Of a stretch of DNA of 64,000 nt, positions 8,992 to 55,179 are shown piece by piece. Each line of letters starts with the position of its first letter. Position 1 is the stretch's first letter. Below the pieces are notes generated by a model. The model saw only the letters and a program-made list of their open reading frames with translations. It was not told the origin of the DNA and did no database searches. The stretch comes from Acidobacteriota bacterium. Lineage in GTDB: Bacteria; Acidobacteriota; JAAYUB01. The stretch spans positions 20,427 through 84,426 of the forward strand of contig JAGOHA010000003.1 of NCBI GenBank assembly GCA_017996395.1. Direction: 5' to 3'. A program made the position numbers and the translations under genes.

Positions 8992-11109
<2,118 letters not shown>

Positions 11110-40236: not shown

Positions 40237-40493
40237 AGCATCTTCGAGCCTGTACGCCGGATACTCCACTCGAACGAGATGAAGCATGAATCAGCTCTTA
40301 AAGGCAATCAATCCAATCCTTCCGCATGGCAACCCCCCTTGCTCTCAGGAGCCGGCGACGATCCCGGTGTCCGACTTGAATCTGCTCTGTTTTACCTTGC
40401 TTCTCCATGCCATCCCGGCTATCTTCCTGATAAGTTGACCGTTTTTAGTTGGATAGCCTGTCTACTTGCCGGAAGAACTGCGAAGAGAGTCTC

Positions 40494-42005
40494 ATGCCGT
40501 TCACGCTCCTCCTGGCGATGGTATTAAGCATGTCCGGTCTGTCGGCAGTGAATTCATTCTCCACGGTTTCGCTCTCTGCCATCATTTTCACACAACAGGA
40601 TGCCGGCTGCCTGAGCGGCACGCCGGAGAACATCCCACCCCCCCTCGACAATGGCACCATCCCAGCGGCATGCACGGACAAGCTCGTCCGTCCGAACACA
40701 ACCGGCCATCCGGCAGCCAGAGCTGTTTCGACGCCGGCACCATCTGAAGAGTCGCCAACCCGACCCCAGCCGGACCAGAAGGGCGCCTCCGGACCGGAAA
40801 CCAAGGTTGACGAGAACGACAAGCCTCCCACCATTCCGTTCGATTATTCCGGCGACTTCACCCACCGGCCCGTACTGACCGGTGATTGGGATGGAATCCG
40901 CACGAAACTCCTGCAGCATGGCATCCGCATCGATGTGTTGTTTATGCCGATATTACAGGGCAACCTGTCGGGAGGTCTGGTCCAGAAGCCCATGTTCTAC
41001 GGGTCGCTCCGCTACGGCATCGACGTGGACACAGCCACCGCCGGCCTGTGGCGCGGCGGTTCCTGCAGCTTCAAGATCCAGACGGGCTGTGGCCGAAGCG
41101 CCAACGACCAGACCGGCCAGGGGGTGATTAATCAGGTGGACTGGGCCGCCGTCGATGCCGGTGACGGGGATCCACCCACCACGGTGACCGACGCAATTCT
41201 CTTTCAGAAACTGAACGGGTTGTTTTCCGTCGCCGGGGGACGGATCACTTCACGCGATTCCAACGTCTTCGCATCCGACGAAACAACCCAGTTCCTCAAC
41301 GCCGCGTTCAACAACAATCCAGCGTACAACACCACTTTCCCCCGCCAGACGCTGTTCGCTTCGTTGCTGGCTAATCCCGCCCCGTGGTTCACGCTGATCA
41401 CCGCCGTGCTCGATGCCGGTCCGCCGGCCGCCGAGGACAGGCCCGGCACGGATTTCAACCGGGGGATCACCCTGTTCACCTTAACTTCCTTTTCCGTGAA
41501 GACCGCTGAATTACCCGGACACCACCGCCTCGGCGGAACCTGGAGCAACAAGGTCAAGCCCACGCTGGAGGGACTCATCTCTCCGGATCTATACCCGGAT
41601 ACGGTATCCAGCGACTGGGGGCTCAATTACGACTTCGACCAGTTTCTCATGCAAGACCGGAGTTCGCCCAATCGGGGGTTCGGAGTCTTCGGGCGATTCG
41701 GCCTCGGAAATCCGGTCACGAACAAAACGAGCGCGTTCTACAGTTTCGGGCTGGGAGGACGCGGCATGTGGCCCGGCCGTCCGGCAGATTCTTTCGGCGT
41801 CGGGTATTTTTATGATACGACCAGCAAGCGGGTCCCGCCGGAAATCAGGACCTTGCTGCGCAACGAACGGGGGTTCGAGGCTTACTACAATCTGGGCCTG
41901 AAACCCTGGCTCGAGCTCACCCTGGACCTGCAGGTCGTCACGCCGCCCTTGAAGGAGGATGCGCAGGCGGTGGTGGGAGGGGTCAGACTGCTGATCCGGC
42001 TTTGA
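40494..42005 (+). CDS. OprB-family carbohydrate-selective porin with a long low-complexity N-terminal extension
   Basis: Signal peptide MPFTLLLAMVLSMSGLSA; C-terminal beta-barrel ending in the OprB-like GVGYFYD...FEAYYNLGLKPWLELTLDLQVV. Confidence 0.6.
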   Translation: MPFTLLLAMVLSMSGLSAVNSFSTVSLSAIIFTQQDAGCLSGTPENIPPPLDNGTIPAACTDKLVRPNTTGHPAARAVSTPAPSEESPTRPQPDQKGASGPETKVDENDKPPTIPFDYSGDFTHRPVLTGDWDGIRTKLLQHGIRIDVLFMPILQGNLSGGLVQKPMFYGSLRYGIDVDTATAGLWRGGSCSFKIQTGCGRSANDQTGQGVINQVDWAAVDAGDGDPPTTVTDAILFQKLNGLFSVAGGRITSRDSNVFASDETTQFLNAAFNNNPAYNTTFPRQTLFASLLANPAPWFTLITAVLDAGPPAAEDRPGTDFNRGITLFTLTSFSVKTAELPGHHRLGGTWSNKVKPTLEGLISPDLYPDTVSSDWGLNYDFDQFLMQDRSSPNRGFGVFGRFGLGNPVTNKTSAFYSFGLGGRGMWPGRPADSFGVGYFYDTTSKRVPPEIRTLLRNERGFEAYYNLGLKPWLELTLDLQVVTPPLKEDAQAVVGGVRLLIRL

Positions 42006-42041
42006 GAGCCGCCCGAACGACACACGGCGAGGTGAAAAACA

Positions 42042-43985
42042 ATGTTCGACAGACTGTTTAGCCCGGTGCGCATCGCCGGACTGGAGATCCGGAACCGCGT
42101 GGCGATGACCCCCATGGGCGTGGGCCTCGCCGCGGTGGGCGGCGGGGTCAGCGACGACATCATCGCCTTCTACGAGGCGCGGGCCCGGGGCGGCATCGGG
42201 CTCATCGTCAGCGAGATCTGCCGGGTCATGGACGGCGCCGGCGCGGGCGAGCCCTGCCAGCTTGCGGCGAGAAACGGGGCCGACATCCAAGGGCTCGGCC
42301 GGATGGTGGATGCGGTGCGCAAGTACGGCGCCCGAATGTTCATCCAGTTGCACCATCCCGGCCGACAGGGCCACCACGAGGTTGGCGGCGAGCAGCCCGT
42401 CTCCGCCTCGGCGGTGGCCAATCCCGTCACGGGGGAAGTTCCCCGCGCCCTGACGGTCCCGGAGATCGGGAAAATCCAGCAGGCTTTCGTGGGCGGGGCC
42501 CGCATCGCCCAAATGGCCGGGGCCGATGGCGTCGAGCTGCACGGCGCGCATGGTTATCTGATCAACGGCTTCCTGTCACCCTATCTCAACCGGCGCGACG
42601 ACCAGTACGGCGGCAGTCTCGAGAACCGCCTGCGGTTTCTGCTGGAGATCGTCGCGGGCATCCGAACGGTCTGCGGAAGAGGGTTCCCGCTTGGCGTCCG
42701 CCTCTCGGCCGAGGAGTTTCTGGGCGACCAGGGGAACGACCTCGCCGCAACGTGCCAAATCGCGGCGGAATTGGAGAAGGCCGGCGTCGACTTCCTCGAC
42801 ATCAGCTGCACCATCCCTGACAGCCCGAAGTTCACCGCTTGCATCGAGCCGGGCACGATCGAACAGGGTTGGAAGAGGTACATGGCCGCGGAGATCAAGA
42901 AACATGTGAAGATCCCGGTCATCGCCGTGGCCAACATCAAGGAGCCGGAAGTCGCGGAGGCGATCCTGGCGGAAGGGTGCTGCGACCTGGTGGGCGTGGC
43001 GCGCGGGCACCTCGCCGACCCCGACTGGTGCCACAAGGCCAAGGCCGGCAAACCGGAAACCATCCGCAAGTGCATCGGCTGCCTCGTCTGCTTCGACGAG
43101 ATCGAACATGCCCGCCACGTCAAGTGCTCCGTCAATCCGACCACGGGCCGCGAACGGGAGTTCGCCCGCCCGGCCCGCGACGGAGCGGGGCGGACAGTGG
43201 CTGTTGTGGGCGGAGGGCCCGCAGGGGTCACGGCCGCCCTGGTACTGCAGGAGCGAGGATTCCGCACTGTGCTGTTCGACCCGTCACCGCGTCTCGGCGG
43301 CACGCTGAACGTAGCCGACAAGGGCGTCGACAAGGAGAAGATCACGCGACTGGTCGACTCCCTGATCGCCCAGGTGCTGGACAGCGGCGTGGAGCTGCGC
43401 CTCGGCGAGGAGGCGACGGTGGAGAAGGTCCAGGCCCTATCCCCCTGTGGCGTGTTCGTCGCCTGTGGTGCCCGGCCGATCGTCCCGCCCATCCCGGGGA
43501 TAGACGGCGAGAATGTCGTCCTCGCCGAAGACGTCCTGACGGGAAGGGCCACGGTCGACGGAGACTGCATAGTGATCGGGTCGGGGATGACCGGCCTTGA
43601 GACGGCGGAGGTGGTCCTCCGCGCCGGGCACAAGACGACGGTGGTGGACATGCTGCCGCAGATCGGCGCCGGCGCGGAGATCATCGTGATCCTCGACGCC
43701 AAGCAGCGGATGGCGCCCTACAACCCGGTCTACCTGCCCGGACACAAGTTGTTGAAAATCAATGAGACCGGTGTCGAACTCGAATGCGTGGAAAGCGGCC
43801 GGACCATCTCCGTCCCTGCGCGCACCGTGATTCTGGCCATGGGCGTCCGTCCCAACCGGGAAGTCGTGGACCGCTTCCGGACCGCCTTCCCTGACGCTCG
43901 GGTCGTCGGCGACGCGGCCCGCGGCGGACGGATCCTGGAAGCGACGCAGGACGCCTATGGCCAGGCGTTCGTGTTTGAACCCTAA
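42042..43985 (+). CDS. Old-Yellow-Enzyme-like FMN oxidoreductase fused to an FAD/NAD(P)-binding domain (2,4-dienoyl-CoA-reductase-like)
   Basis: OYE N-domain (HGAHGYLINGFLSP), 4Fe-4S Cys cluster CIGCLVCFDE, C-terminal Rossmann VAVVGGGPAG. Confidence 0.7.
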   Translation: MFDRLFSPVRIAGLEIRNRVAMTPMGVGLAAVGGGVSDDIIAFYEARARGGIGLIVSEICRVMDGAGAGEPCQLAARNGADIQGLGRMVDAVRKYGARMFIQLHHPGRQGHHEVGGEQPVSASAVANPVTGEVPRALTVPEIGKIQQAFVGGARIAQMAGADGVELHGAHGYLINGFLSPYLNRRDDQYGGSLENRLRFLLEIVAGIRTVCGRGFPLGVRLSAEEFLGDQGNDLAATCQIAAELEKAGVDFLDISCTIPDSPKFTACIEPGTIEQGWKRYMAAEIKKHVKIPVIAVANIKEPEVAEAILAEGCCDLVGVARGHLADPDWCHKAKAGKPETIRKCIGCLVCFDEIEHARHVKCSVNPTTGREREFARPARDGAGRTVAVVGGGPAGVTAALVLQERGFRTVLFDPSPRLGGTLNVADKGVDKEKITRLVDSLIAQVLDSGVELRLGEEATVEKVQALSPCGVFVACGARPIVPPIPGIDGENVVLAEDVLTGRATVDGDCIVIGSGMTGLETAEVVLRAGHKTTVVDMLPQIGAGAEIIVILDAKQRMAPYNPVYLPGHKLLKINETGVELECVESGRTISVPARTVILAMGVRPNREVVDRFRTAFPDARVVGDAARGGRILEATQDAYGQAFVFEP

Positions 43986-44011
43986 TTCAATTGACAGGGA
44001 GTACAACAACC

Positions 44012-44830
44012 ATGAGTGAAACGAAAGACTATTATCGCAACAAGGTCGCCGTCGTGACCGGCGGTGCCTCGGGCGTCGGGCTGGCCCTTGCGGAGACAAT
44101 GCTCGGCTACGAAGCGAGGGGAGTCATCCTCGCGGACGTCAACGATGCCAACCTGGCCCGGGAGACCGCACGCCTGAACACGGCCTATCCCGGACGGGCG
44201 TTGGGGGTCCACTGCGACGTGACTCTGGAGGCCGAAGTTCAGGGGATGATCGCCCAGGCGGCGGAGTTCGGCGGCGGGAGAATCGACCTGCTGTTCAACA
44301 ACGCCGGCGCCGGTTTCGCCGGATATTTCGACCAGTTGTCGAACGCCCACTGGGAGAAGGCGTTCGCGCTGAATTTCTACGGGGCGCTGTACGGCATCCG
44401 CGCCGTGCTGCCGGTGATGCGGGCGCAGGGCGGCGGCCACATCGTGGACGTCATCTCCGGGATCGCGTTCAGCCCGATGGCCCTGCAGTCCATGTACGCC
44501 GCCACGAAGGCCGCCCTGAACGCGCTGACCCTCGCCCTGCGCTACGAGTTCTGGGACGAAAACATCCGCCTGACTTCGACCACGCCGGGCACCACGGCTA
44601 CCGCGATCTGGTCCGCCGGCGGCCAAGAGCCGCCCGCGGGAGCGCAGACGCCCGAGCATTCCGCGCAGACGATCCTCGCCGGCGTGGCGAAGAACCAGCG
44701 GCTGGTTTTCGGCGACGCGGACGATGAGAGGGGCGCCCGTAACTGCTTCAATCCCGATATCGCCGACGGGGTGGACGATTACCTGCTGAACGTGGCCCGA
44801 AAGCGCCGCAGCGGTGAATGGGTCGTTTAG
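44012..44830 (+). CDS. SDR-family oxidoreductase
   Basis: VAVVTGGASGVG...NNAG...YAATKAAL. Confidence 0.75.
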   Translation: MSETKDYYRNKVAVVTGGASGVGLALAETMLGYEARGVILADVNDANLARETARLNTAYPGRALGVHCDVTLEAEVQGMIAQAAEFGGGRIDLLFNNAGAGFAGYFDQLSNAHWEKAFALNFYGALYGIRAVLPVMRAQGGGHIVDVISGIAFSPMALQSMYAATKAALNALTLALRYEFWDENIRLTSTTPGTTATAIWSAGGQEPPAGAQTPEHSAQTILAGVAKNQRLVFGDADDERGARNCFNPDIADGVDDYLLNVARKRRSGEWVV

Positions 44831-44866
44831 CTTCCCCCCGAAAAACCGAATGGAGGTCATGATCCC

Positions 44867-45736
44867 ATGAAAAACGGCAGTTATTTCATCCCGCGGGAAC
44901 AGCTTCACGCTTTCATGAACCCCGGCGCCATGAACAACGAGGAGGGCCTGTACATCTTCTGGGAGACCGATCCCGCCGTGGCGAGACGCGTGCTGCCTCC
45001 GATGTTGGAGCTGCTGGATCCCGCCCACCCCATCGCCATGGTCTACGTCGTGAACATCCGCGAACCCACCTTCGCGCCCTGGTACATGGAAGGCGGCCTC
45101 AGCCTGCTCTGCCGGTACGGCGAAACCGTCGGCGCCTACTTCCTGAACCTCCAGCTCAGCGGTCCGGGCGCGCACATGGGCCTGTGCAGCGGGCGCGAGA
45201 CCTCCGGGCTACCGAAGAAGATGTGCGAGCGCATCGTGGTCGAGCGCAAAGGCGACTGGGCGCGCGCCTTCATCGAGCGGCACGGCCGGCGAATATTCTC
45301 GACCGAGGTGGAGTTGGGAGACTACAACGACCCCCTTCTGGGAATCATGCGCCAGGACTACAAGCCGGGGTACCAGGAACGGGGCGCCTGCCTGCTGTTC
45401 CAGTACGAATGCGGCCCGGCTCCGGCTGGCCACATGATCATTCCGCAGGCGCGCCTGCTCCATTACGACAGCGTCATCGATTACACGACCTGGGAACCGG
45501 CGCGCATCCAATCGATTCAAATGGAACACTCACTCGACGACCCGTGGGCGGAATTGTTGGTGGTGAAGCTGCTGGGCGCCGGGTACAGCATCAACTCCAA
45601 TTGGGTCGCGGGTCTTTCGACTCTCGCACAATACGACGGGGCGGAGGCCGACAGCCTCTTCTCGTACCTGTTCTCGGGACGCTGGGACCGATCCACGCTC
45701 GTCACCGGCCGTCACCAGATCTACGGGCAGTTCTGA
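44867..45736 (+). CDS. Acetoacetate-decarboxylase (ADC)-family protein
   Basis: Size, and the pattern around ...GLPKKMCERIV..., resemble the ADC superfamily. A lower-confidence family call. Confidence 0.45.
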   Translation: MKNGSYFIPREQLHAFMNPGAMNNEEGLYIFWETDPAVARRVLPPMLELLDPAHPIAMVYVVNIREPTFAPWYMEGGLSLLCRYGETVGAYFLNLQLSGPGAHMGLCSGRETSGLPKKMCERIVVERKGDWARAFIERHGRRIFSTEVELGDYNDPLLGIMRQDYKPGYQERGACLLFQYECGPAPAGHMIIPQARLLHYDSVIDYTTWEPARIQSIQMEHSLDDPWAELLVVKLLGAGYSINSNWVAGLSTLAQYDGAEADSLFSYLFSGRWDRSTLVTGRHQIYGQF

Positions 45737-45756
45737 ACGCTTCCGGAGGACGCATC

Positions 45757-46671
45757 ATGACCATCGACGACATCCGCAAGATCCTGGTGGTGGGCACGGG
45801 AACCATGGGCCAGAAGATCGCCCTGCAGTGCGCCCGCTACGGCTACGAAGTGGTCGCCTACGACGCCGTCCCGAAGTCCCTGGAGAATGCCAAGGCAAGA
45901 ATTCCCGCCTTCGCTGCCGACCTGGTGGCGCGGGGGACAATGAAACCCGAGGAATCCGAAGCCGCCATCGCCCGGATCCGCTACTCCTCCGATCCCCGGG
46001 ACGGGGCGGATGCGGACCTCGTGAGCGAGTCGATCTTCGAGGATCCCGACCTCAAGGCGAAGGTCTTCGCCCAACTCAACGCGGTCTGCAAACCCCAAAC
46101 GGTCTTCACAACCAACACATCCACGCTGTTGCCGTCCATGTACGCCGAAGCTACCGGCCGGCCGGACCGGTTCGCCGCGTTGCATTTCCTGGGCGTGATC
46201 GACCATCGACTCGTGGACATCATGCCCCATCCGGGGACCGCGCCCGAGATCGTGGAACTGCTGACGGCCTTCGCCCGGCGGATCCGGCAGGTCCCGCTGG
46301 TCCTCAAGAAGGAGAATCCCGGCTACGTGTCCAACGCCATCTGGGGTGCCATGAACTCCGCGGCCATCCGGATCTCGCTGGTGGACAAGGTCGCCTCGGT
46401 TGAGGACGTCGACCGGGCGGTCATGATCCACCTCGGCATGCCCTGCGGCCCGTTCGGCCTGAACGACCAGATCGGGCTGGACACCATCTGGCACGTGATG
46501 CAGAGCAATGCCAAGCTGTCGGGTGACCCAGGCGCCCAGGCCTTCGCCGACGAGTTCAAGCGGGACTACATCGACAAGGGCTGGCTGGGGGCCAAGTCCG
46601 GTCGGGGATTCTACACCTACCCCGACCCGGCCTATCTCCACCCCGGTTTTTTAAGCGGCGATCCCGAGTGA
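45757..46671 (+). CDS. 3-hydroxyacyl-CoA dehydrogenase (NAD-binding)
   Basis: ILVVGTGTMGQKIA (Rossmann), NTSTL, C-terminal dimerisation domain. The track ORF starts at 45184; ATG at 45757. Confidence 0.75.
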   Translation: MTIDDIRKILVVGTGTMGQKIALQCARYGYEVVAYDAVPKSLENAKARIPAFAADLVARGTMKPEESEAAIARIRYSSDPRDGADADLVSESIFEDPDLKAKVFAQLNAVCKPQTVFTTNTSTLLPSMYAEATGRPDRFAALHFLGVIDHRLVDIMPHPGTAPEIVELLTAFARRIRQVPLVLKKENPGYVSNAIWGAMNSAAIRISLVDKVASVEDVDRAVMIHLGMPCGPFGLNDQIGLDTIWHVMQSNAKLSGDPGAQAFADEFKRDYIDKGWLGAKSGRGFYTYPDPAYLHPGFLSGDPE

Positions 46672-46698
46672 TCGTTCCCGCAAGAGGGTCCCTAGCCG

Positions 46699-47985
46699 AT
46701 GATGCCCACCACTCGTCCTCAATTCCCGCTCATGCGAAAGCTGCTGGAGGAGGCCGACCTTTCCCTGGAAGTCGTCGTCCTGCTCATCTTCGGAGCGTTC
46801 TTGCTCCTGTTCGGCATCCTCCTGGCGCCGATACATACGGGGATCGTGCCATATAGCCCGGACGGCACCTACGGGCTTTTCCTGGTGCTCGTCTCCTTTC
46901 AGATGATCGCGATGGGTAAGACGCCTTTCGGCGACCTGCGCCGCTCCTGGGCCGCGGTTGCCGGCGGCATGGCCGTTGCGGTCCTGGGCATGTCCCTCTG
47001 TTTCATCCCGGGTTTCCTTACGGGCTTCGCCCGATGGCTGGTCGGATTCGTGCTAACAGCAGGCGGGTTATCCCTCTTTCTGCAGCTGTTGATGGCCCGC
47101 GAGAAGGGGCGGCGGTGGATGGCCGGGCCCGGGATCCTGAAATCGCTCGCTGTCTGTAGTGGCGCGGTATACCTGCTGTTGGCTGCCCTGGGGCTGATCA
47201 CCTTGTGTCCCGGGGCCGTCTCGGACTACGTGACCGCCGGGACCCTCGTCGCCACCGGACTCGGCCTCCTGTCCCTGGCCGGGATTATTCAGCAGATCAT
47301 CCGACGGTGGCCGGAAGCGGATCAGCATCCGACGTTGAAAGGAGTGGCCGTTGCAGAAGATGCGAGGAAAACCCGGAGAGGGCTGTTCGGGGAAGCCAAC
47401 CTCTCTCTCTCGCTGGCGACACTTCTTCTGATGGGAGTCCTGCTGACTCTCCTTGGATTGGTCCTGATACCCGTCAATCTGGGATGGATCCCCTTCTCGC
47501 CCGATGGCTTGCAGGGTCTCCTGCTCACTCTCTTCGCCATCCAGATGATGTCGCTGGGAGACTCTCCGATCGGCCATTACCGGCGGTCGTGGCTGATGGT
47601 CTCCTACGGCATCGCCTTCGTCGGCCTGGGTGCATTCTCCTGCATCGCGCCGGGGGTGCTCACTAGCGTCCTCCGGGCCCTCCTCGCCGTATTGAACCTC
47701 ACGGCCGGGGGCCTTTACTTCGCCAGGCGGCTCCGCCAGAGGATCAAGGAGAGGAAGACCCCGCCGGCAGATCCTCTCCCGCCCATCGTCACCCGGTTGT
47801 TCCGCACGCAGGCGGCGCTGAACATCGCCGTCATCGCGTTCGGAGTCAACATGCTCGTGCCAGGGCTCCTGCCGGGCTTCGTGAATGCTGTGATTATCGT
47901 CGCCAACGGGTTGCTGCTCTTTCAACTGGCCTTCCTCCTGATGATACTGGAGCAAGAGGCGACGCCACGCGATTGCGGATCATGA
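46699..47985 (+). CDS. Polytopic membrane protein of unknown function with an internal tandem duplication (2 x about 5 TM)
   Basis: Repeat 1 ...LLAPIHTGIVPYSPDGTYGLFLVLVSFQMIAMGKTPFGDLRRSW... versus repeat 2 ...LVLIPVNLGWIPFSPDGLQGLLLTLFAIQMMSLGDSPIGHYRRSW... Confidence 0.5.
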   Translation: MMPTTRPQFPLMRKLLEEADLSLEVVVLLIFGAFLLLFGILLAPIHTGIVPYSPDGTYGLFLVLVSFQMIAMGKTPFGDLRRSWAAVAGGMAVAVLGMSLCFIPGFLTGFARWLVGFVLTAGGLSLFLQLLMAREKGRRWMAGPGILKSLAVCSGAVYLLLAALGLITLCPGAVSDYVTAGTLVATGLGLLSLAGIIQQIIRRWPEADQHPTLKGVAVAEDARKTRRGLFGEANLSLSLATLLLMGVLLTLLGLVLIPVNLGWIPFSPDGLQGLLLTLFAIQMMSLGDSPIGHYRRSWLMVSYGIAFVGLGAFSCIAPGVLTSVLRALLAVLNLTAGGLYFARRLRQRIKERKTPPADPLPPIVTRLFRTQAALNIAVIAFGVNMLVPGLLPGFVNAVIIVANGLLLFQLAFLLMILEQEATPRDCGS

Positions 47986-48149
47986 CGTATTAATTCGTGC
48001 CCGACGGCATTTGATGCCCTTGCCAGAGGTTTTCATCGCCTCTGTCTATGTGCAACTTCTCGCCCCGGACGACCATTTCCGTAGGGTCCTGGACCTGAAG
48101 CTGATCGGAGTAAGCCCGCCACCGCCCTGGACCCAGTCCGACTTCCCGG

Positions 48150-48178
48150 TTGAAAATCCGACCGGCATCCACTATAGT
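48150..48178 (+). promoter_or_regulatory. Near-consensus sigma70-type promoter (TTGAAA-N17-TATAGT) upstream of the radical SAM gene
   Basis: Hexamers read directly with a 17-bp spacer. An AAGGAAG RBS follows before the ATG at 48211. Confidence 0.5.
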
Positions 48179-48210
48179 GACATTTTGTTCGTCAACTGAA
48201 AGGAAGTGTC

Positions 48211-49209
48211 ATGCCCCATATCCCTATGAAATACGCGCCGCAGCTGATCTGGCACGGGACGCGGAACTTTTTTTCGGGCCGCCCGGTGGTCATCTCCTTT
48301 GAGACCACCCTCTCCTGCAACGCCAACTGCCGGCATTGCGACATCGAGGGCCACCGCCCTGACGAGGAACGCATGAAACCGGAGGGCTTCCGGAAATTCA
48401 TCGACCAGTTCCACCCGCCGGTGGTCCAGTTGTCCGGCGGCGAGCCGCTCCTCCGGGACGACCTGCTCGATGTGGTTCGGGCCGTCAAGATCAATCCCTT
48501 CTTTCCCTACACTATCCTGGTTTCCAACGGCTCGCTCATGACGCTGGAGCGCTATCGGGCGTTCCGCGAAGCGGGGGTGAACCAGTTCTCCGTTTCGCTG
48601 GATTTTCCCGATTCCCGCCATGATGACTTCCGCCTGATTCCCGGCTTGTACAACATCTTGAACGAGGTGATCCCGCAACTGGCCGCTGAAGGCCACGGCG
48701 ATGTGGTGCTCAACACCGCCATCACCTCGGCGAATGTCGGCGAGCTTGAACCCATCATCCGGACGGCCGACCGCTGGGGTGTTTGCCTGAGCTTCAGCAT
48801 CTACACGCCGCTCCGCACCCAGAATCCCGAGTACGTCGTGAGCAAAGCCGAAGACCTCGACGCCGTGGAGCAGCTGTTTGCGCGTTGCAAGCGGCGCCAG
48901 GGCGTCTATCGCCGGGTGGTGAACTCCCATTACAACCTGGATGGCATCATGCGATTCATGCGCGAGGGCAACATCCCCAACTGCAGCGCCGGCATCCGGT
49001 TCATGGTGGTCCGACCCGAGGGCAAGCTGAACCCCTGTTCACTCCAGCGGATCAATTTCGATACCCAGGATCAATTGGCCCGGGAATTTTCCGCCCACAA
49101 CACCTGCGGCGGCTGCTATGTGTCGATCCGATCATACGTCGAGATCTCGTTCGCTCAACTGTTGTGGGAAAACATCTCGATGCGGGTTTTTAACAGGAAT
49201 ACTATGTGA
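48211..49209 (+). CDS. Radical SAM enzyme with a C-terminal SPASM/twitch-like Cys cluster
   Basis: CNANCRHC (CxxxCxxC), the GGEPLL motif, C-terminal Cys residues (CSAGI...C...CGGCY). Confidence 0.65.
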   Translation: MPHIPMKYAPQLIWHGTRNFFSGRPVVISFETTLSCNANCRHCDIEGHRPDEERMKPEGFRKFIDQFHPPVVQLSGGEPLLRDDLLDVVRAVKINPFFPYTILVSNGSLMTLERYRAFREAGVNQFSVSLDFPDSRHDDFRLIPGLYNILNEVIPQLAAEGHGDVVLNTAITSANVGELEPIIRTADRWGVCLSFSIYTPLRTQNPEYVVSKAEDLDAVEQLFARCKRRQGVYRRVVNSHYNLDGIMRFMREGNIPNCSAGIRFMVVRPEGKLNPCSLQRINFDTQDQLAREFSAHNTCGGCYVSIRSYVEISFAQLLWENISMRVFNRNTM

Positions 49210-49219
49210 GAGGCCGGCA

Positions 49220-49630
49220 GTGCGCATAACTACAACCTGGGACGGCGGCATGGCATTTGTGGCTACGCAGGACGGCCACACCGTCCGTCTGGACGCGTCC
49301 TCCGAGCATGGCGGCCGCAACTCGGGTCCGAGGCCCAAGGGGCTGGTGTTGACCGGACTGGCGGGTTGCACCGGCATGGACGTGGTGAGCATTCTGAACA
49401 AGATGCGGGTGGCATTCACCCGGTTCTCGGTGGAGGTGTCCGGCGAACTGACCGCCGATCACCCAAAGGTCTTCTCCCGGATCCATATTCGGTACGTCCT
49501 GCATGGCCCGAATATCGCGCGCGACAAGGTCGAGAAGGCCGTCGACTTGTCTCAGGAGAAGTACTGCGGGGTCGCGGCGATGTTGCGCAAGGTGTGTCCC
49601 ATCACCCACGAAATCATCATCCAGGACTGA
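49220..49630 (+). CDS. OsmC/Ohr-family protein
   Basis: GTG start. GPRPKGLVLTGLAGCTGMDV and ...EKYCGVAAML are the two conserved Cys motifs of OsmC/Ohr. Confidence 0.7.
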   Translation: MRITTTWDGGMAFVATQDGHTVRLDASSEHGGRNSGPRPKGLVLTGLAGCTGMDVVSILNKMRVAFTRFSVEVSGELTADHPKVFSRIHIRYVLHGPNIARDKVEKAVDLSQEKYCGVAAMLRKVCPITHEIIIQD

Positions 49631-49740: not shown

Positions 49741-50202
49741 ATGATGAAGAAACTGATCGCCACCGCCCTGATGCTCGTACTGGCCCTATCCATCGCCCCT
49801 CTGGCAGTTATCGGGAAGACAACTATCGCCTTCACGGAATCCGAGTACGCCAAATCACTGAACTTGAAACTGAACCTGCAGAAACCCGATTTGAACGCCT
49901 ACGTTGGCACCGGTAAGGAAATGATCGTGATCAAGACGAAGAAGGAAATCGTGTACTACGAGCGGTTCACCTGGCTGAGCTCGGCCATGCCGGCCGATGA
50001 GGCCATCCGCCATGCCGCCTATCTCAATTTCCTGTCCCAGGCGGCCGATATTCCCAGCGGCACCCCGGAGTATGATCAATTAGCCGCCGCCGTGAAGTCG
50101 AACACCGCTGAATTCATCCTGCGGGGCCTGTTCCAGGTTCGCGTCCGCGCCGAGAACGGCGACAAAGGCGCCAAGCACTTTGTAGAAATCTACGTCAAGT
50201 AA
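49741..50202 (+). CDS. Small secreted hypothetical protein (low-GC gene)
   Basis: Signal peptide MMKKLIATALMLVLALSIAPLAV; AT-rich upstream region; terminator downstream. Confidence 0.5.
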   Translation: MMKKLIATALMLVLALSIAPLAVIGKTTIAFTESEYAKSLNLKLNLQKPDLNAYVGTGKEMIVIKTKKEIVYYERFTWLSSAMPADEAIRHAAYLNFLSQAADIPSGTPEYDQLAAAVKSNTAEFILRGLFQVRVRAENGDKGAKHFVEIYVK

Positions 50203-50204
50203 GA

Positions 50205-51599
50205 TTAGTCATCTTCACGGAGCCGTTCCTTCGGGACGGCTCTTTTTTTTTGCCAGTCAAGTGTCCACGCTCCGAACACCCCGCCGCCGACACAGCCGAA
50301 CCAGACCGCCAGCAGCCAGTTGACTCCGGTGAGGACCGCCCCGAATCCAACCAGAGCACCAGCCAGGCTCAACCCGGCAGCCAATCGGTTACCGATCCGC
50401 ATACTCTGACCGGCCACTGCCAGCAGGAGCAGCGGACTGACAGCCGCGGCATAAATCTGGTAACCCGCCAGAAGCGCCCCGATGATCGACGGATAGATGA
50501 GCGCGGTGGCCAGCGAAATGAGCAACACCAGGGGAACCGCGACGCGCATCCGTCGTCGAAAAGCGTCCCGATCCGGGTGGGCCGGCTCCGGCTTCAGCTC
50601 CATGACCAGGATCGAGGATGCCGTCAGCAGGCAGGTGTCGGCCGACGAAATGACGGCGGCCAGCAAGCCCGCAAGCACCAGGCCTTGTCCCCACTCGGGC
50701 AGCACGGCGACGGTCAGGGACGGCAACAAGGCGTCCCCTGTGGTCAAGGGCAAGACCGCCGCACCGATCACGCCGATGACGGAGATCCAGATGCTGAACG
50801 GGATCAGCAGCGTGCCGCAGGCGATCGCCGCTCGACGGAATGTCACCGCGGTTCGCGCGCAGAGAAATCTGGAAAAAATGTCCGGTCCCGTGGCGAACAG
50901 GATAAAGGTCACCAGAGCCATGGACAGATAATCGCCACTCCTGACAGGGAGGTCGGCGATGAACTCCGTCCAGCGTGCCTGCAACAGCGCGGCTGGCTCT
51001 CCCGCTGCAAGTGCCCGCCAGGCCGCCACCCCCAGCATGGTGATGCCGATGGTCAGCGCACCCAACTGCAGCAGGTCCGTCCGCAACACCGATTTCTGCC
51101 CGCCGGCCGTCACATAAACGCCGAGGAGAAGGGCGGCAATCGCCATCGCCAACCACGCCGGGCAACCCGCCACAGGCCCGACAATCCAGCCGATGGCCAG
51201 CAGTTGGGCGGCGATCACGCCGATCCAGCCCGTCACGATGAGCAGCCCGGACAAGCGCCGGACCAGCGGCCCGTACTGGCACCCCAGATACTCCGGCACC
51301 GTGTAGACCGTCTCGGTCTGTCGAAGTCGTCGCGCGGCCCAACCGGCGGCGATCAGGCCCAGCGCTCCGCCCCACAGCCACGCCGACGCGCCGAAACCGC
51401 TCGTCGCCGCCAGGCCGCAGATTCCCAGTGTTGCCGAGGCGCCGACGATCGTCGCCCCCAGGCTGCCGAAAACCTGCCAGAATGCACCCCGTCGGCCGGC
51501 CACGAAATAATCGTCCGGTCGACGGGAGGCCCGGGCGTGCCAAAGTCCGGCGCCAGCGACCGCCGCCAGGTAAGCGATGATGATGACTGCGCGGACCAA
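50205..51599 (-). CDS. Sodium:solute symporter-like polytopic transporter
   Basis: About 13 predicted TM segments; the N-terminus resembles SSF (FVAGRRGAFWQVFGSLGATIVGASATLG). Confidence 0.55.
   Translation of the reverse strand: MVRAVIIIAYLAAVAGAGLWHARASRRPDDYFVAGRRGAFWQVFGSLGATIVGASATLGICGLAATSGFGASAWLWGGALGLIAAGWAARRLRQTETVYTVPEYLGCQYGPLVRRLSGLLIVTGWIGVIAAQLLAIGWIVGPVAGCPAWLAMAIAALLLGVYVTAGGQKSVLRTDLLQLGALTIGITMLGVAAWRALAAGEPAALLQARWTEFIADLPVRSGDYLSMALVTFILFATGPDIFSRFLCARTAVTFRRAAIACGTLLIPFSIWISVIGVIGAAVLPLTTGDALLPSLTVAVLPEWGQGLVLAGLLAAVISSADTCLLTASSILVMELKPEPAHPDRDAFRRRMRVAVPLVLLISLATALIYPSIIGALLAGYQIYAAAVSPLLLLAVAGQSMRIGNRLAAGLSLAGALVGFGAVLTGVNWLLAVWFGCVGGGVFGAWTLDWQKKRAVPKERLREDD
50219..50251 (+). 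terminator. Rho-independent terminator for the 49741 gene, embedded in the last codons of the convergent minus-strand gene
   Basis: GGAGCCGTTCC-ttc-GGGACGGCTC followed by TTTTTTTTT. Confidence 0.65.
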
Positions 51600-55103: not shown

Positions 55104-55179
55104 TGGTGCCGAGGGACGGAATTGAACCGCCGACACAGGGATTTTCAGTCCCCTGCTCTACCGGCTGAGCTACCTCGGC
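55104..55179 (-). tRNA. tRNA-Phe (anticodon GAA), CCA encoded
   Basis: Reverse complement GCCGAGGTAGCTCAGCCGGTAGAGCAGGGGACTGAAAATCCCTGTGTCGGCGGTTCAATTCCGTCCCTCGGCACCA: 7-bp acceptor stem, anticodon loop CTGAAAA, T-loop GGTTCAATTCC. Confidence 0.9.

Follow-up and report, generated by a model that had tools for sequence, protein, structure and literature searches.

Radical S-adenosylmethionine (SAM) enzymes with auxiliary clusters perform chemically difficult steps, and two related C-terminal domains are described that hold such clusters. The SPASM domain is a seven-cysteine motif (CX9-15GX4C ... CX2CX5CX3C ... C) with two auxiliary clusters, and the twitch domain is a shortened SPASM, a beta-hairpin with CX9-15GX4C and further cysteines that holds a single auxiliary cluster. 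The twitch/SPASM classification of radical SAM enzymes is reportedly that of Grell, Goldman and Drennan in 2015. An electron-conduit role is ascribed to the auxiliary clusters of BtrN, anSME and AhbD, and a related role has been proposed for Tes. Here we analyze a 64,000-nt stretch of an Acidobacteriota genome (contig JAGOHA010000003.1; the whole stretch is called the window), in which a gene for a 332-residue radical SAM protein is directly followed by a gene for an OsmC-family protein. We find that the radical SAM gene represents an unassigned twitch family with a distinctive set of partners. Based on the gene contexts of its relatives, we tentatively propose, with a probability of roughly 0.45, that the enzyme is directed at a membrane lipid or at a lipid-linked head group or substrate.

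An earlier note on this DNA had read the protein as a radical SAM enzyme from its CNANCRHC motif, and this reading holds. The motif, C36-N-A-N-C40-R-H-C43, has the CX3CX2C form of the superfamily, and the protein matches PF04055 (radical SAM) with 57.4 bits against a cut-off of 29.5; Pfam recognizes only the radical SAM core. Further cysteines are found at C258 and C276 and in C299-G-G-C302-Y. In an alignment of 35 homologs with 45-100% identity to the window protein, all seven cysteines (C36, C40 and C43 together with C258, C276, C299 and C302) are invariant, and the last four form an equally invariant twitch pattern, C258-X12-G271-X4-C276 plus C299-X2-C302. The CX5CX3C part of SPASM is absent (the protein reads CGGCYVSIRSY at this place), and neither SPASM (PF13186) nor DUF3463 matches the protein even at E <= 10. 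Thus, where the note had suspected a SPASM or twitch domain, the cysteine-rich auxiliary-cluster domain stands and the full SPASM does not. We predict from the motif that the C-terminal domain is a one-cluster twitch with four putative ligands, in which C258, C276, C299 and C302 would fully ligate one auxiliary [4Fe-4S] cluster.

The predicted structure agrees with this class. An AlphaFold model built from the family alignment is confident (pLDDT 86.9, pTM 0.88) and has strands at residues 264-267, with the hairpin next. The top structural matches of the model are BlsE, SkfB and MoaA, followed by matches that include SuiB, CteB, anSME, Tes and PqqE, all at sequence identities of 12-20% (16% for BlsE). 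A profile search of PDB sequences returned only generic matches to the radical SAM core (SkfB at E = 3.5e-14, BlsE, Tes and PqqE) and no ortholog. Because the structural and profile matches are all twitch or SPASM enzymes at low identity, the class of the protein is clear and a characterized ortholog is lacking among them.

Curated models lead to the same result. The NCBIfam scan gave 48 weak matches, none of them near its curated cut-off. Highest is AhbD (87.3 bits, over residues 28-226, which is only the radical SAM core), and NirJ2 reaches 73.5 bits, NirJ1 72.0 bits and NirJ 60.3 bits, all with a cut-off of 500. Three MoaA models reach 54-72 bits versus cut-offs of 231-325, HpnH (TIGR03470) 44.5 versus 225, PqqE 44 versus 381 and Tes (NF045702) 39.3 versus 450, and QueE models are absent from the 25 best matches. 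Confident placement in a housekeeping subfamily such as MoaA or QueE would have undone the earlier reading; no housekeeping subfamily claims the protein, with MoaA, AhbD/NirJ, PqqE and HpnH all far below their cut-offs. The HpnH class, which the note had offered as an example, has to be dropped given its score, a match confined to the radical SAM core, the missing DUF3463 and the lack of hpn genes in the flanks that we inspected.

We collected relatives by a pattern-match scan of one genome per GTDB species, and at least 536 were confirmed among the 600 pattern matches listed. The best 80 loci are nearly all from Acidobacteriota (Terriglobia, Bryobacterales/Solibacteraceae and Vicinamibacterales), and the closest genome among the matches listed is an Acidobacteriota metagenome-assembled genome from an anaerobic membrane bioreactor, with 87% identity. 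In a search of 1.84 billion cluster representatives, 71 clusters were found at E <= 1e-30. A second branch of the family, about 43% identical to the window protein, occurs in Calditrichota, Candidatus Eisenbacteria, KSB1 and Latescibacterota. A neighbor-joining tree unites the clade of the window, the other acidobacterial clades and this flippase-linked clade (see below) in one family that is well separated from the neighboring paralog. Based on these comparisons, the enzyme is assigned to an uncharacterized family of about 330 residues without a curated model or a characterized member. The window itself holds no paralog of the gene and no Tes.

The genes that accompany the family point to membrane lipids. 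We clustered the open reading frames (ORFs) neighboring the family all-against-all, in 81 and then in 165 loci. Three types of neighbor proved informative, namely OsmC (see below), flippase-type or DedA/VTT membrane proteins, and a Tes and Ger/PlsA-like cluster. In the non-acidobacterial branch, the gene that follows codes for a PF03706/TIGR00374 flippase-like membrane protein in each of the five independent contexts that we inspected; the two genes overlap by 8 nt at one extreme and are 113 nt apart at the other, and the flanks show no relation from one context to another. In one Latescibacterota locus (L059; 46% identity) a DedA/VTT-like gene, starting 38 nt downstream, is next instead, and in another relative (P0124; 40% identity) a DedA/VTT membrane domain is fused to the N-terminus of the enzyme, with every family motif retained. 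The flippase-like partner scores 52.9 bits on the model of the GlcN-PG flippase, versus a cut-off of 320. In a second type of context, seen within the Acidobacteriota, the family gene adjoins lipid genes. Locus L031 has, in order on one strand, genes for Tes, a Ger/PlsA-like protein, a 425-residue protein and the radical SAM enzyme, the final gap being 67 nt, and in L023, L036 and L038 the radical SAM gene is convergent with the cluster of Tes, Ger/PlsA-like and 425-residue protein genes. The Tes assignments are well above the model's cut-off (560 bits in L031 and 572 bits in L036), and the Ger/PlsA-like protein consists of two PF01869 (BcrAD_BadFG) domains and PF09989 (DUF2229), which is the conserved "BBD" architecture of glycerol ester reductase (PMC13159169). 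Tes and PlsAR are the genes proposed for making branched glycerol dialkyl glycerol tetraethers, or brGDGTs, in Solibacter usitatus (PMC10087280). As an observation in their own right, the stretches L031 3732-11077 and L036 10001-18276, with L023 and L038, are candidate branched-tetraether lipid loci in Vicinamibacterales and relatives of Solibacter. The family copies beside Tes were also considered as Gms and rejected on length, domain content and similarity to AhbD.

Given that the flippase-type partner is conserved yet interchangeable (PF03706 or DedA/VTT) and that relatives adjoin Tes and Ger/PlsA-like genes, a membrane lipid or lipid-linked head group is the best supported candidate for the substrate, and of the several functions that the note had listed for such enzymes, lipid modification is the one that the gene context of the relatives favors. 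In the mechanism that we propose, the enzyme would hold two [4Fe-4S] clusters, one at the SAM-cleaving site and one in the twitch domain. Reductive cleavage of SAM would yield a 5'-deoxyadenosyl radical that abstracts a hydrogen atom from the substrate, and the fully ligated auxiliary cluster may conduct electrons in the resolution of the substrate radical. In those lineages that encode a flippase-type membrane protein beside the radical SAM gene, this protein would then take over the product.

Several observations weigh against a lipid substrate. No neighbor is universal, or present in more than 17% of the 165 loci; the association with Tes comprises four loci in only two independent arrangements; and neither the window nor most of the acidobacterial loci have a lipid gene adjoining the radical SAM gene. 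Polyprenyl-phosphate carriers, too, are acted on by flippase-like and DedA proteins, so the enzyme might use a lipid-linked sugar and not an acyl chain. In a test for membrane association by amphipathic helices, the helix at the N-terminus came out as only moderately amphipathic, and all of the functional steps given above are read from sequence and gene context. Other findings on this side belong equally to a serious rival, in which the enzyme acts on a soluble small molecule or cofactor, either a sugar nucleotide or nucleoside, as BlsE, DesII and BtrN do, or a carboxylate-rich tetrapyrrole that is decarboxylated in the manner of AhbD or NirJ; the membrane proteins beside the gene in other phyla would then be transporters or unrelated. 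BlsE, which has the closest fold, takes a soluble sugar nucleoside as its substrate, the best NCBIfam matches, weak as they are, are the tetrapyrrole enzymes AhbD and NirJ1/2 together with MoaA, and relatives at a greater distance (27-33% identity) carry fused glycosyltransferase (GT2) or nucleotidyltransferase (NTP_transferase) domains. In addition, most acidobacterial loci have the radical SAM gene on its own, a situation shared by many cofactor genes. However, all of the curated cut-offs are missed widely (87 versus 500 bits at best, and at most 72 versus at least 231 for MoaA), the identity to BlsE is only 16%, and moaC, ahbABC, pqqABCD, mftABC and heme genes recur nowhere in the 165 loci. 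Furthermore, the sole strictly conserved neighbor outside of the Acidobacteriota is a protein of the lipid-flippase type. We regard a soluble substrate as less probable than a lipid.

We also considered whether the protein matures a peptide, which is the commonest role of SPASM and twitch enzymes. The enzyme would then introduce a thioether, C-C crosslink or epimerization into a ribosomally synthesized and post-translationally modified peptide (RiPP) or a protein whose precursor is encoded elsewhere, and the RiPP maturases SkfB, SuiB, CteB, ChlB and EpeE are indeed among the close structural matches. However, only 35 residues precede the CX3CX2C motif, leaving no room for a RiPP recognition element (RRE), and no other leader-binding domain is present at the N-terminus. 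The note had seen no obvious precursor peptide nearby, and we confirm this down to ORFs of at least 20 residues in the 225-nt upstream gap, where the only such ORFs are a vapC remnant or antisense artifacts; there is no adjacent precursor gene. Across the 165 clustered loci, no small ORF is conserved beside the radical SAM gene, and genes for a protease, a transporter or a second tailoring enzyme do not recur. The contexts also vary widely over several phyla, unlike those typical of RiPP clusters. Peptide maturation, which was another of the functions suggested earlier, is thus improbable.

In the window and its closest relatives, the partner is an OsmC-family protein. Its assignment to the OsmC/Ohr family is based on PF02566 (73.7 bits versus a cut-off of 27.5) and on the two family cysteines (in LAGCTGMD and KYCGV), which are invariant in the 8 partner sequences. 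The closest curated model is NF008009 (YhfA-type), whose score of 86.6 bits is below the cut-off of 138, and OsmC proper (TIGR03562) is far from reached at 18.8 versus 85.8 bits. In all, 8 distinct loci (the window, L093, L009, L010, L096, L012, L089 and L013/L091), representing at least five different genomic contexts, have an OsmC-like gene directly downstream on the same strand. As the flanks of these loci are completely different, the radical SAM-OsmC pair is a conserved unit, and OsmC is a real partner of the radical SAM gene in the subclade of the window, as the note had supposed. The gene is absent from one subclade locus (L011) and from all of the approximately 150 loci outside of the subclade.

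The unit is preceded by its own promoter. The TTGAAA-N17-TATAGT site and the AAGGAAG ribosome-binding site that had been read ahead of the ORF are both present (Table 1). A single match of this kind is not above chance, with 2 promoter-like matches in 7 kb versus 1.4 +/- 1.2 in shuffled sequence. We therefore compared 10 loci whose radical SAM proteins are 59-100% identical to that of the window. In 9 of the 10, a match of at least 9/12 begins with its -35 hexamer 58-74 nt upstream of the ATG, a level that is reached by 2.8% of 825 random 100-nt windows from the same loci (0.6% reach 10/12). The genes upstream of these promoters vary (dtd, a vapC gene, nifS and a gene for a PKD-domain protein), and given that the site keeps its position in spite of this, the radical SAM gene has its own phylogenetically conserved promoter. 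An AAGGAAG-like purine-rich stretch is also aligned at the position of the ribosome-binding site in the closer subclade loci. Downstream of OsmC, a gene for a 152-residue protein with an apparent signal peptide follows in five loci (the window, L093, L009, L010 and L096). In the window, a terminator-like hairpin, the first strong site of this type on the forward strand downstream of the promoter, stands right after this gene, which may thus be the third gene of the transcription unit. The unit would run from the promoter through the radical SAM gene, the OsmC-like gene and perhaps the gene for the secreted 152-residue protein to the terminator. In a separate observation, the radical SAM-OsmC pair of a 59%-identical relative (L091/L092, 3245-7441) directly follows genes for MerR, NifU and a cysteine desulfurase, that is, for Fe-S assembly, and the promoter-like site of the radical SAM gene is retained there in the 53-nt gap behind the cysteine desulfurase gene. 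An Rfam scan of the whole window found no riboswitch or leader RNA, its sole match being a tRNA gene at 55107-55179 on the minus strand.

The OsmC-like protein probably provides protection against organic hydroperoxides, or thiol redox protection, that is tied to the radical SAM chemistry in this subclade. A broader version of this idea would make the whole pair an oxidative-stress module, in which the radical SAM enzyme repairs or matures a redox protein or cofactor and the lipid contexts are coincidental. Besides the co-transcribed OsmC gene and the MerR-NifU-NifS genes ahead of the pair in L091, other clades have thiol-peroxidase-type genes close to the family gene: 23 loci with a convergent gene for glutathione peroxidase, 8 with a CMD/AhpD-like gene, and L005-L008 with AhpC/TSA (loci of these types include L017, L018 and L020; L027, L061, L062 and L088; and L005-L008). 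However, most of these neighbors are convergent, and they stay within single clades. Acidobacterial genomes hold many such genes, so that by our estimate their enrichment is not clearly above chance, and OsmC itself is confined to the subclade. The thiol-peroxidase-type neighbors could be an echo of the OsmC pairing or chance, and we consider a stress module quite unlikely. In 39 of the 165 loci, the neighbor is a second, unrelated radical SAM gene, mostly head to head with the family gene. This second protein (about 343 residues, 21-24% identical, with a C-terminal cysteine cluster of its own; L014, L015, L021, L025-L028, L035 and others, for example L026 8618-9649 on the minus strand) reaches no curated model. 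Genes for TrmJ and carbonic anhydrase are neighbors in fewer loci. As the second radical SAM, glutathione peroxidase, TrmJ, carbonic anhydrase and CMD/AhpD-like neighbors are each limited to a single clade, we do not count them as evidence.

Upstream of the unit lies the gene for a membrane protein that the note had described as duplicated and had placed in the same functional unit. The duplication is real, with two halves that are 39% identical (E = 6e-25). A specific functional link is not supported: of about 9 subclade loci, only 3 (the window, L093 and L010) have the gene upstream of the radical SAM gene, and in L010 an intact vapB-vapC pair stands between the two, so the protein is a neighbor and not a specific partner. 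We also asked if it might be a counterpart of the flippase-type partners, and rejected it as a DedA/VTT relative (BLASTP against the DedA/VTT domain was negative) and as a distant PF03706 relative (hhalign probability 0.5%); the 64-kb window contains no PF03706 gene. The protein is of a DUF308/HdeD-like family, and its homologs of about 50% identity are found in Methanobacterium, Methanothermobacter, Methanospirillum, Desulfomonilaceae and Syntrophobacteraceae; their occurrence in methanogens and in syntrophic lineages of the deltaproteobacterial type suggests cross-domain transfer among organisms of anaerobic digesters. The vapC remnant just upstream of the promoter matches the C-terminus of VapC (E = 8e-06), and at its place L010 has the intact vapB-vapC pair (9224-9899), with about 180 nt still alignable. 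Relative to the 87%-identical relative L009, the window (about 40400-47985) and L093 (2203-9749) carry an inserted block of six genes between dtd and the radical SAM gene, encoding an OprB porin, an old-yellow-enzyme-type FMN reductase, an SDR protein, an acetoacetate decarboxylase-like protein, a 3-hydroxyacyl-CoA dehydrogenase and the DUF308-like membrane protein.

Table 1. Position of the radical SAM-OsmC unit, its signals and its upstream neighbors in the window.
Feature	Position	Strand	Remarks
DUF308/HdeD-like polytopic membrane protein, internally duplicated, 428 aa	46699..47985	+	Neighbor rather than specific partner
vapC (PIN) toxin, 3' remnant	48011..48130	+	Outside the functional unit
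Sigma-70-type promoter	48150..48178	+	TTGAAA (-35) at 48150-48155, 17-nt spacer, TATAGT (-10) at 48173-48178; 10/12 match
Ribosome-binding site AAGGAAG	48200..48206	+	4 nt ahead of the ATG at 48211
Radical SAM enzyme gene, 332 aa, twitch-type C-terminal domain (predicted)	48211..49209	+	ATG start
OsmC-family (YhfA-like) thiol protein gene, 136 aa	49220..49630	+	GTG start, 10 nt past the radical SAM stop codon
Conserved hypothetical protein, about 152 aa, apparent N-terminal signal peptide	49744..50202	+	No Pfam match
Intrinsic-terminator-like hairpin and T run	50219..50253	+	Hairpin at 50219-50243; 11-bp stem with 7 G-C pairs

Newly assigned radical SAM families with auxiliary clusters tend to reveal new reactions, and the present family is plentiful in Acidobacteriota, a phylum dominant in soils. 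The only functional clues to it, the flippase-type partners and the adjacency to Tes and Ger/PlsA-like genes, lead to membrane lipids. Branched tetraethers and iso-diabolic acid underpin widely used paleotemperature and pH proxies and, to our knowledge, the acidobacterial enzymes that build or tailor these lipids are still unknown. A speculative extension of our proposal, to which we give little credence, is that the family is a missing enzyme in the biosynthesis of membrane-spanning or branched tetraether lipids in Acidobacteria. The step in question could be an Mss-independent tail-to-tail coupling to iso-diabolic acid, or the cyclization or bridging of brGDGTs. The acidobacterial prevalence of the family, the four loci in which it adjoins Tes and Ger/PlsA-like genes, and the pairing with flippase-type genes elsewhere are compatible with such a role. 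Among acidobacteria that produce iso-diabolic acid, the majority lack Mss and Tes is present in only 3 of 14, and acidobacterial genomes showed no Mss homolog under thresholds of E <= 1e-50 and an identity of 30% or more to Tmari_0825 or WP_129545148.1 (PMC13159169); if true, a role of the family in this pathway would explain both the lack of Mss and the rarity of Tes in these organisms. A candidate gene of about 1 kb with a defined partner makes the lipid question testable, and if the substrate is a soluble metabolite instead, the family would still be an unassigned enzyme that is conserved phylum-wide.

The window enzyme can be placed among the known systems as follows. Twitch enzymes such as BtrN, MoaA, SkfB and BlsE have in common with it a partial TIM-barrel radical SAM core, a short C-terminal beta-hairpin/helix domain and a similar size of about 330 residues, at an identity to the window enzyme of only 16-20%. 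BtrN is like it in having a CX12GX4C hairpin motif plus CX2C, with four cysteines and one auxiliary cluster. MoaA has a three-cysteine auxiliary site, in contrast to the four cysteines here, and together with the low scores this excludes the window enzyme as a MoaA. None of the characterized twitch enzymes has the OsmC, PF03706 flippase-like or DedA/VTT neighbors of our family. AhbD and NirJ, the best-scoring curated profiles, are of similar length and also have one auxiliary cluster, but the C-terminal cysteines of the window enzyme form a four-cysteine twitch rather than a SPASM pattern; no heme or siroheme genes are found near the radical SAM gene of the window, and the enzyme was rejected as an AhbD or NirJ on its scores.

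Closer to the function that we favor are the lipid-modifying enzymes Tes, Gms, Mss and HpnH, which belong to the same superfamily branch and have an auxiliary Fe-S cluster, and some relatives of our enzyme adjoin Tes. Our comparison with this group took in Tes, HpnH and, by its description, Gms. Tes, at about 490-550 residues, is much larger than the 332-residue window enzyme, and length and score together rule it out. Gms has more than 400 residues, an N-terminal lipid-binding extension of about 100 residues (COG4001) and 36% identity to AhbD at E of about 1e-79 (PMC11214058). The window enzyme is shorter, matches AhbD weakly and, with its CX3CX2C motif starting at residue 36, has no extension of this type, so it was rejected as a Gms as well. 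A 2026 review of lipid-modifying radical SAM enzymes makes no mention of Acidobacteria or of an acidobacterial enzyme like this one (PMC13459092), and a text search of the literature for radical SAM enzymes with PF03706-type partners found hopanoid papers only. Lastly, the arrangement in the non-acidobacterial branch, a cytoplasmic modifying enzyme paired with a PF03706 flippase, resembles the "modify then flip" modules of the MprF and GlcN-PG type. In those modules the modifier is an aminoacyl transferase or a glycosyltransferase, whereas here its place is taken by a radical SAM protein.

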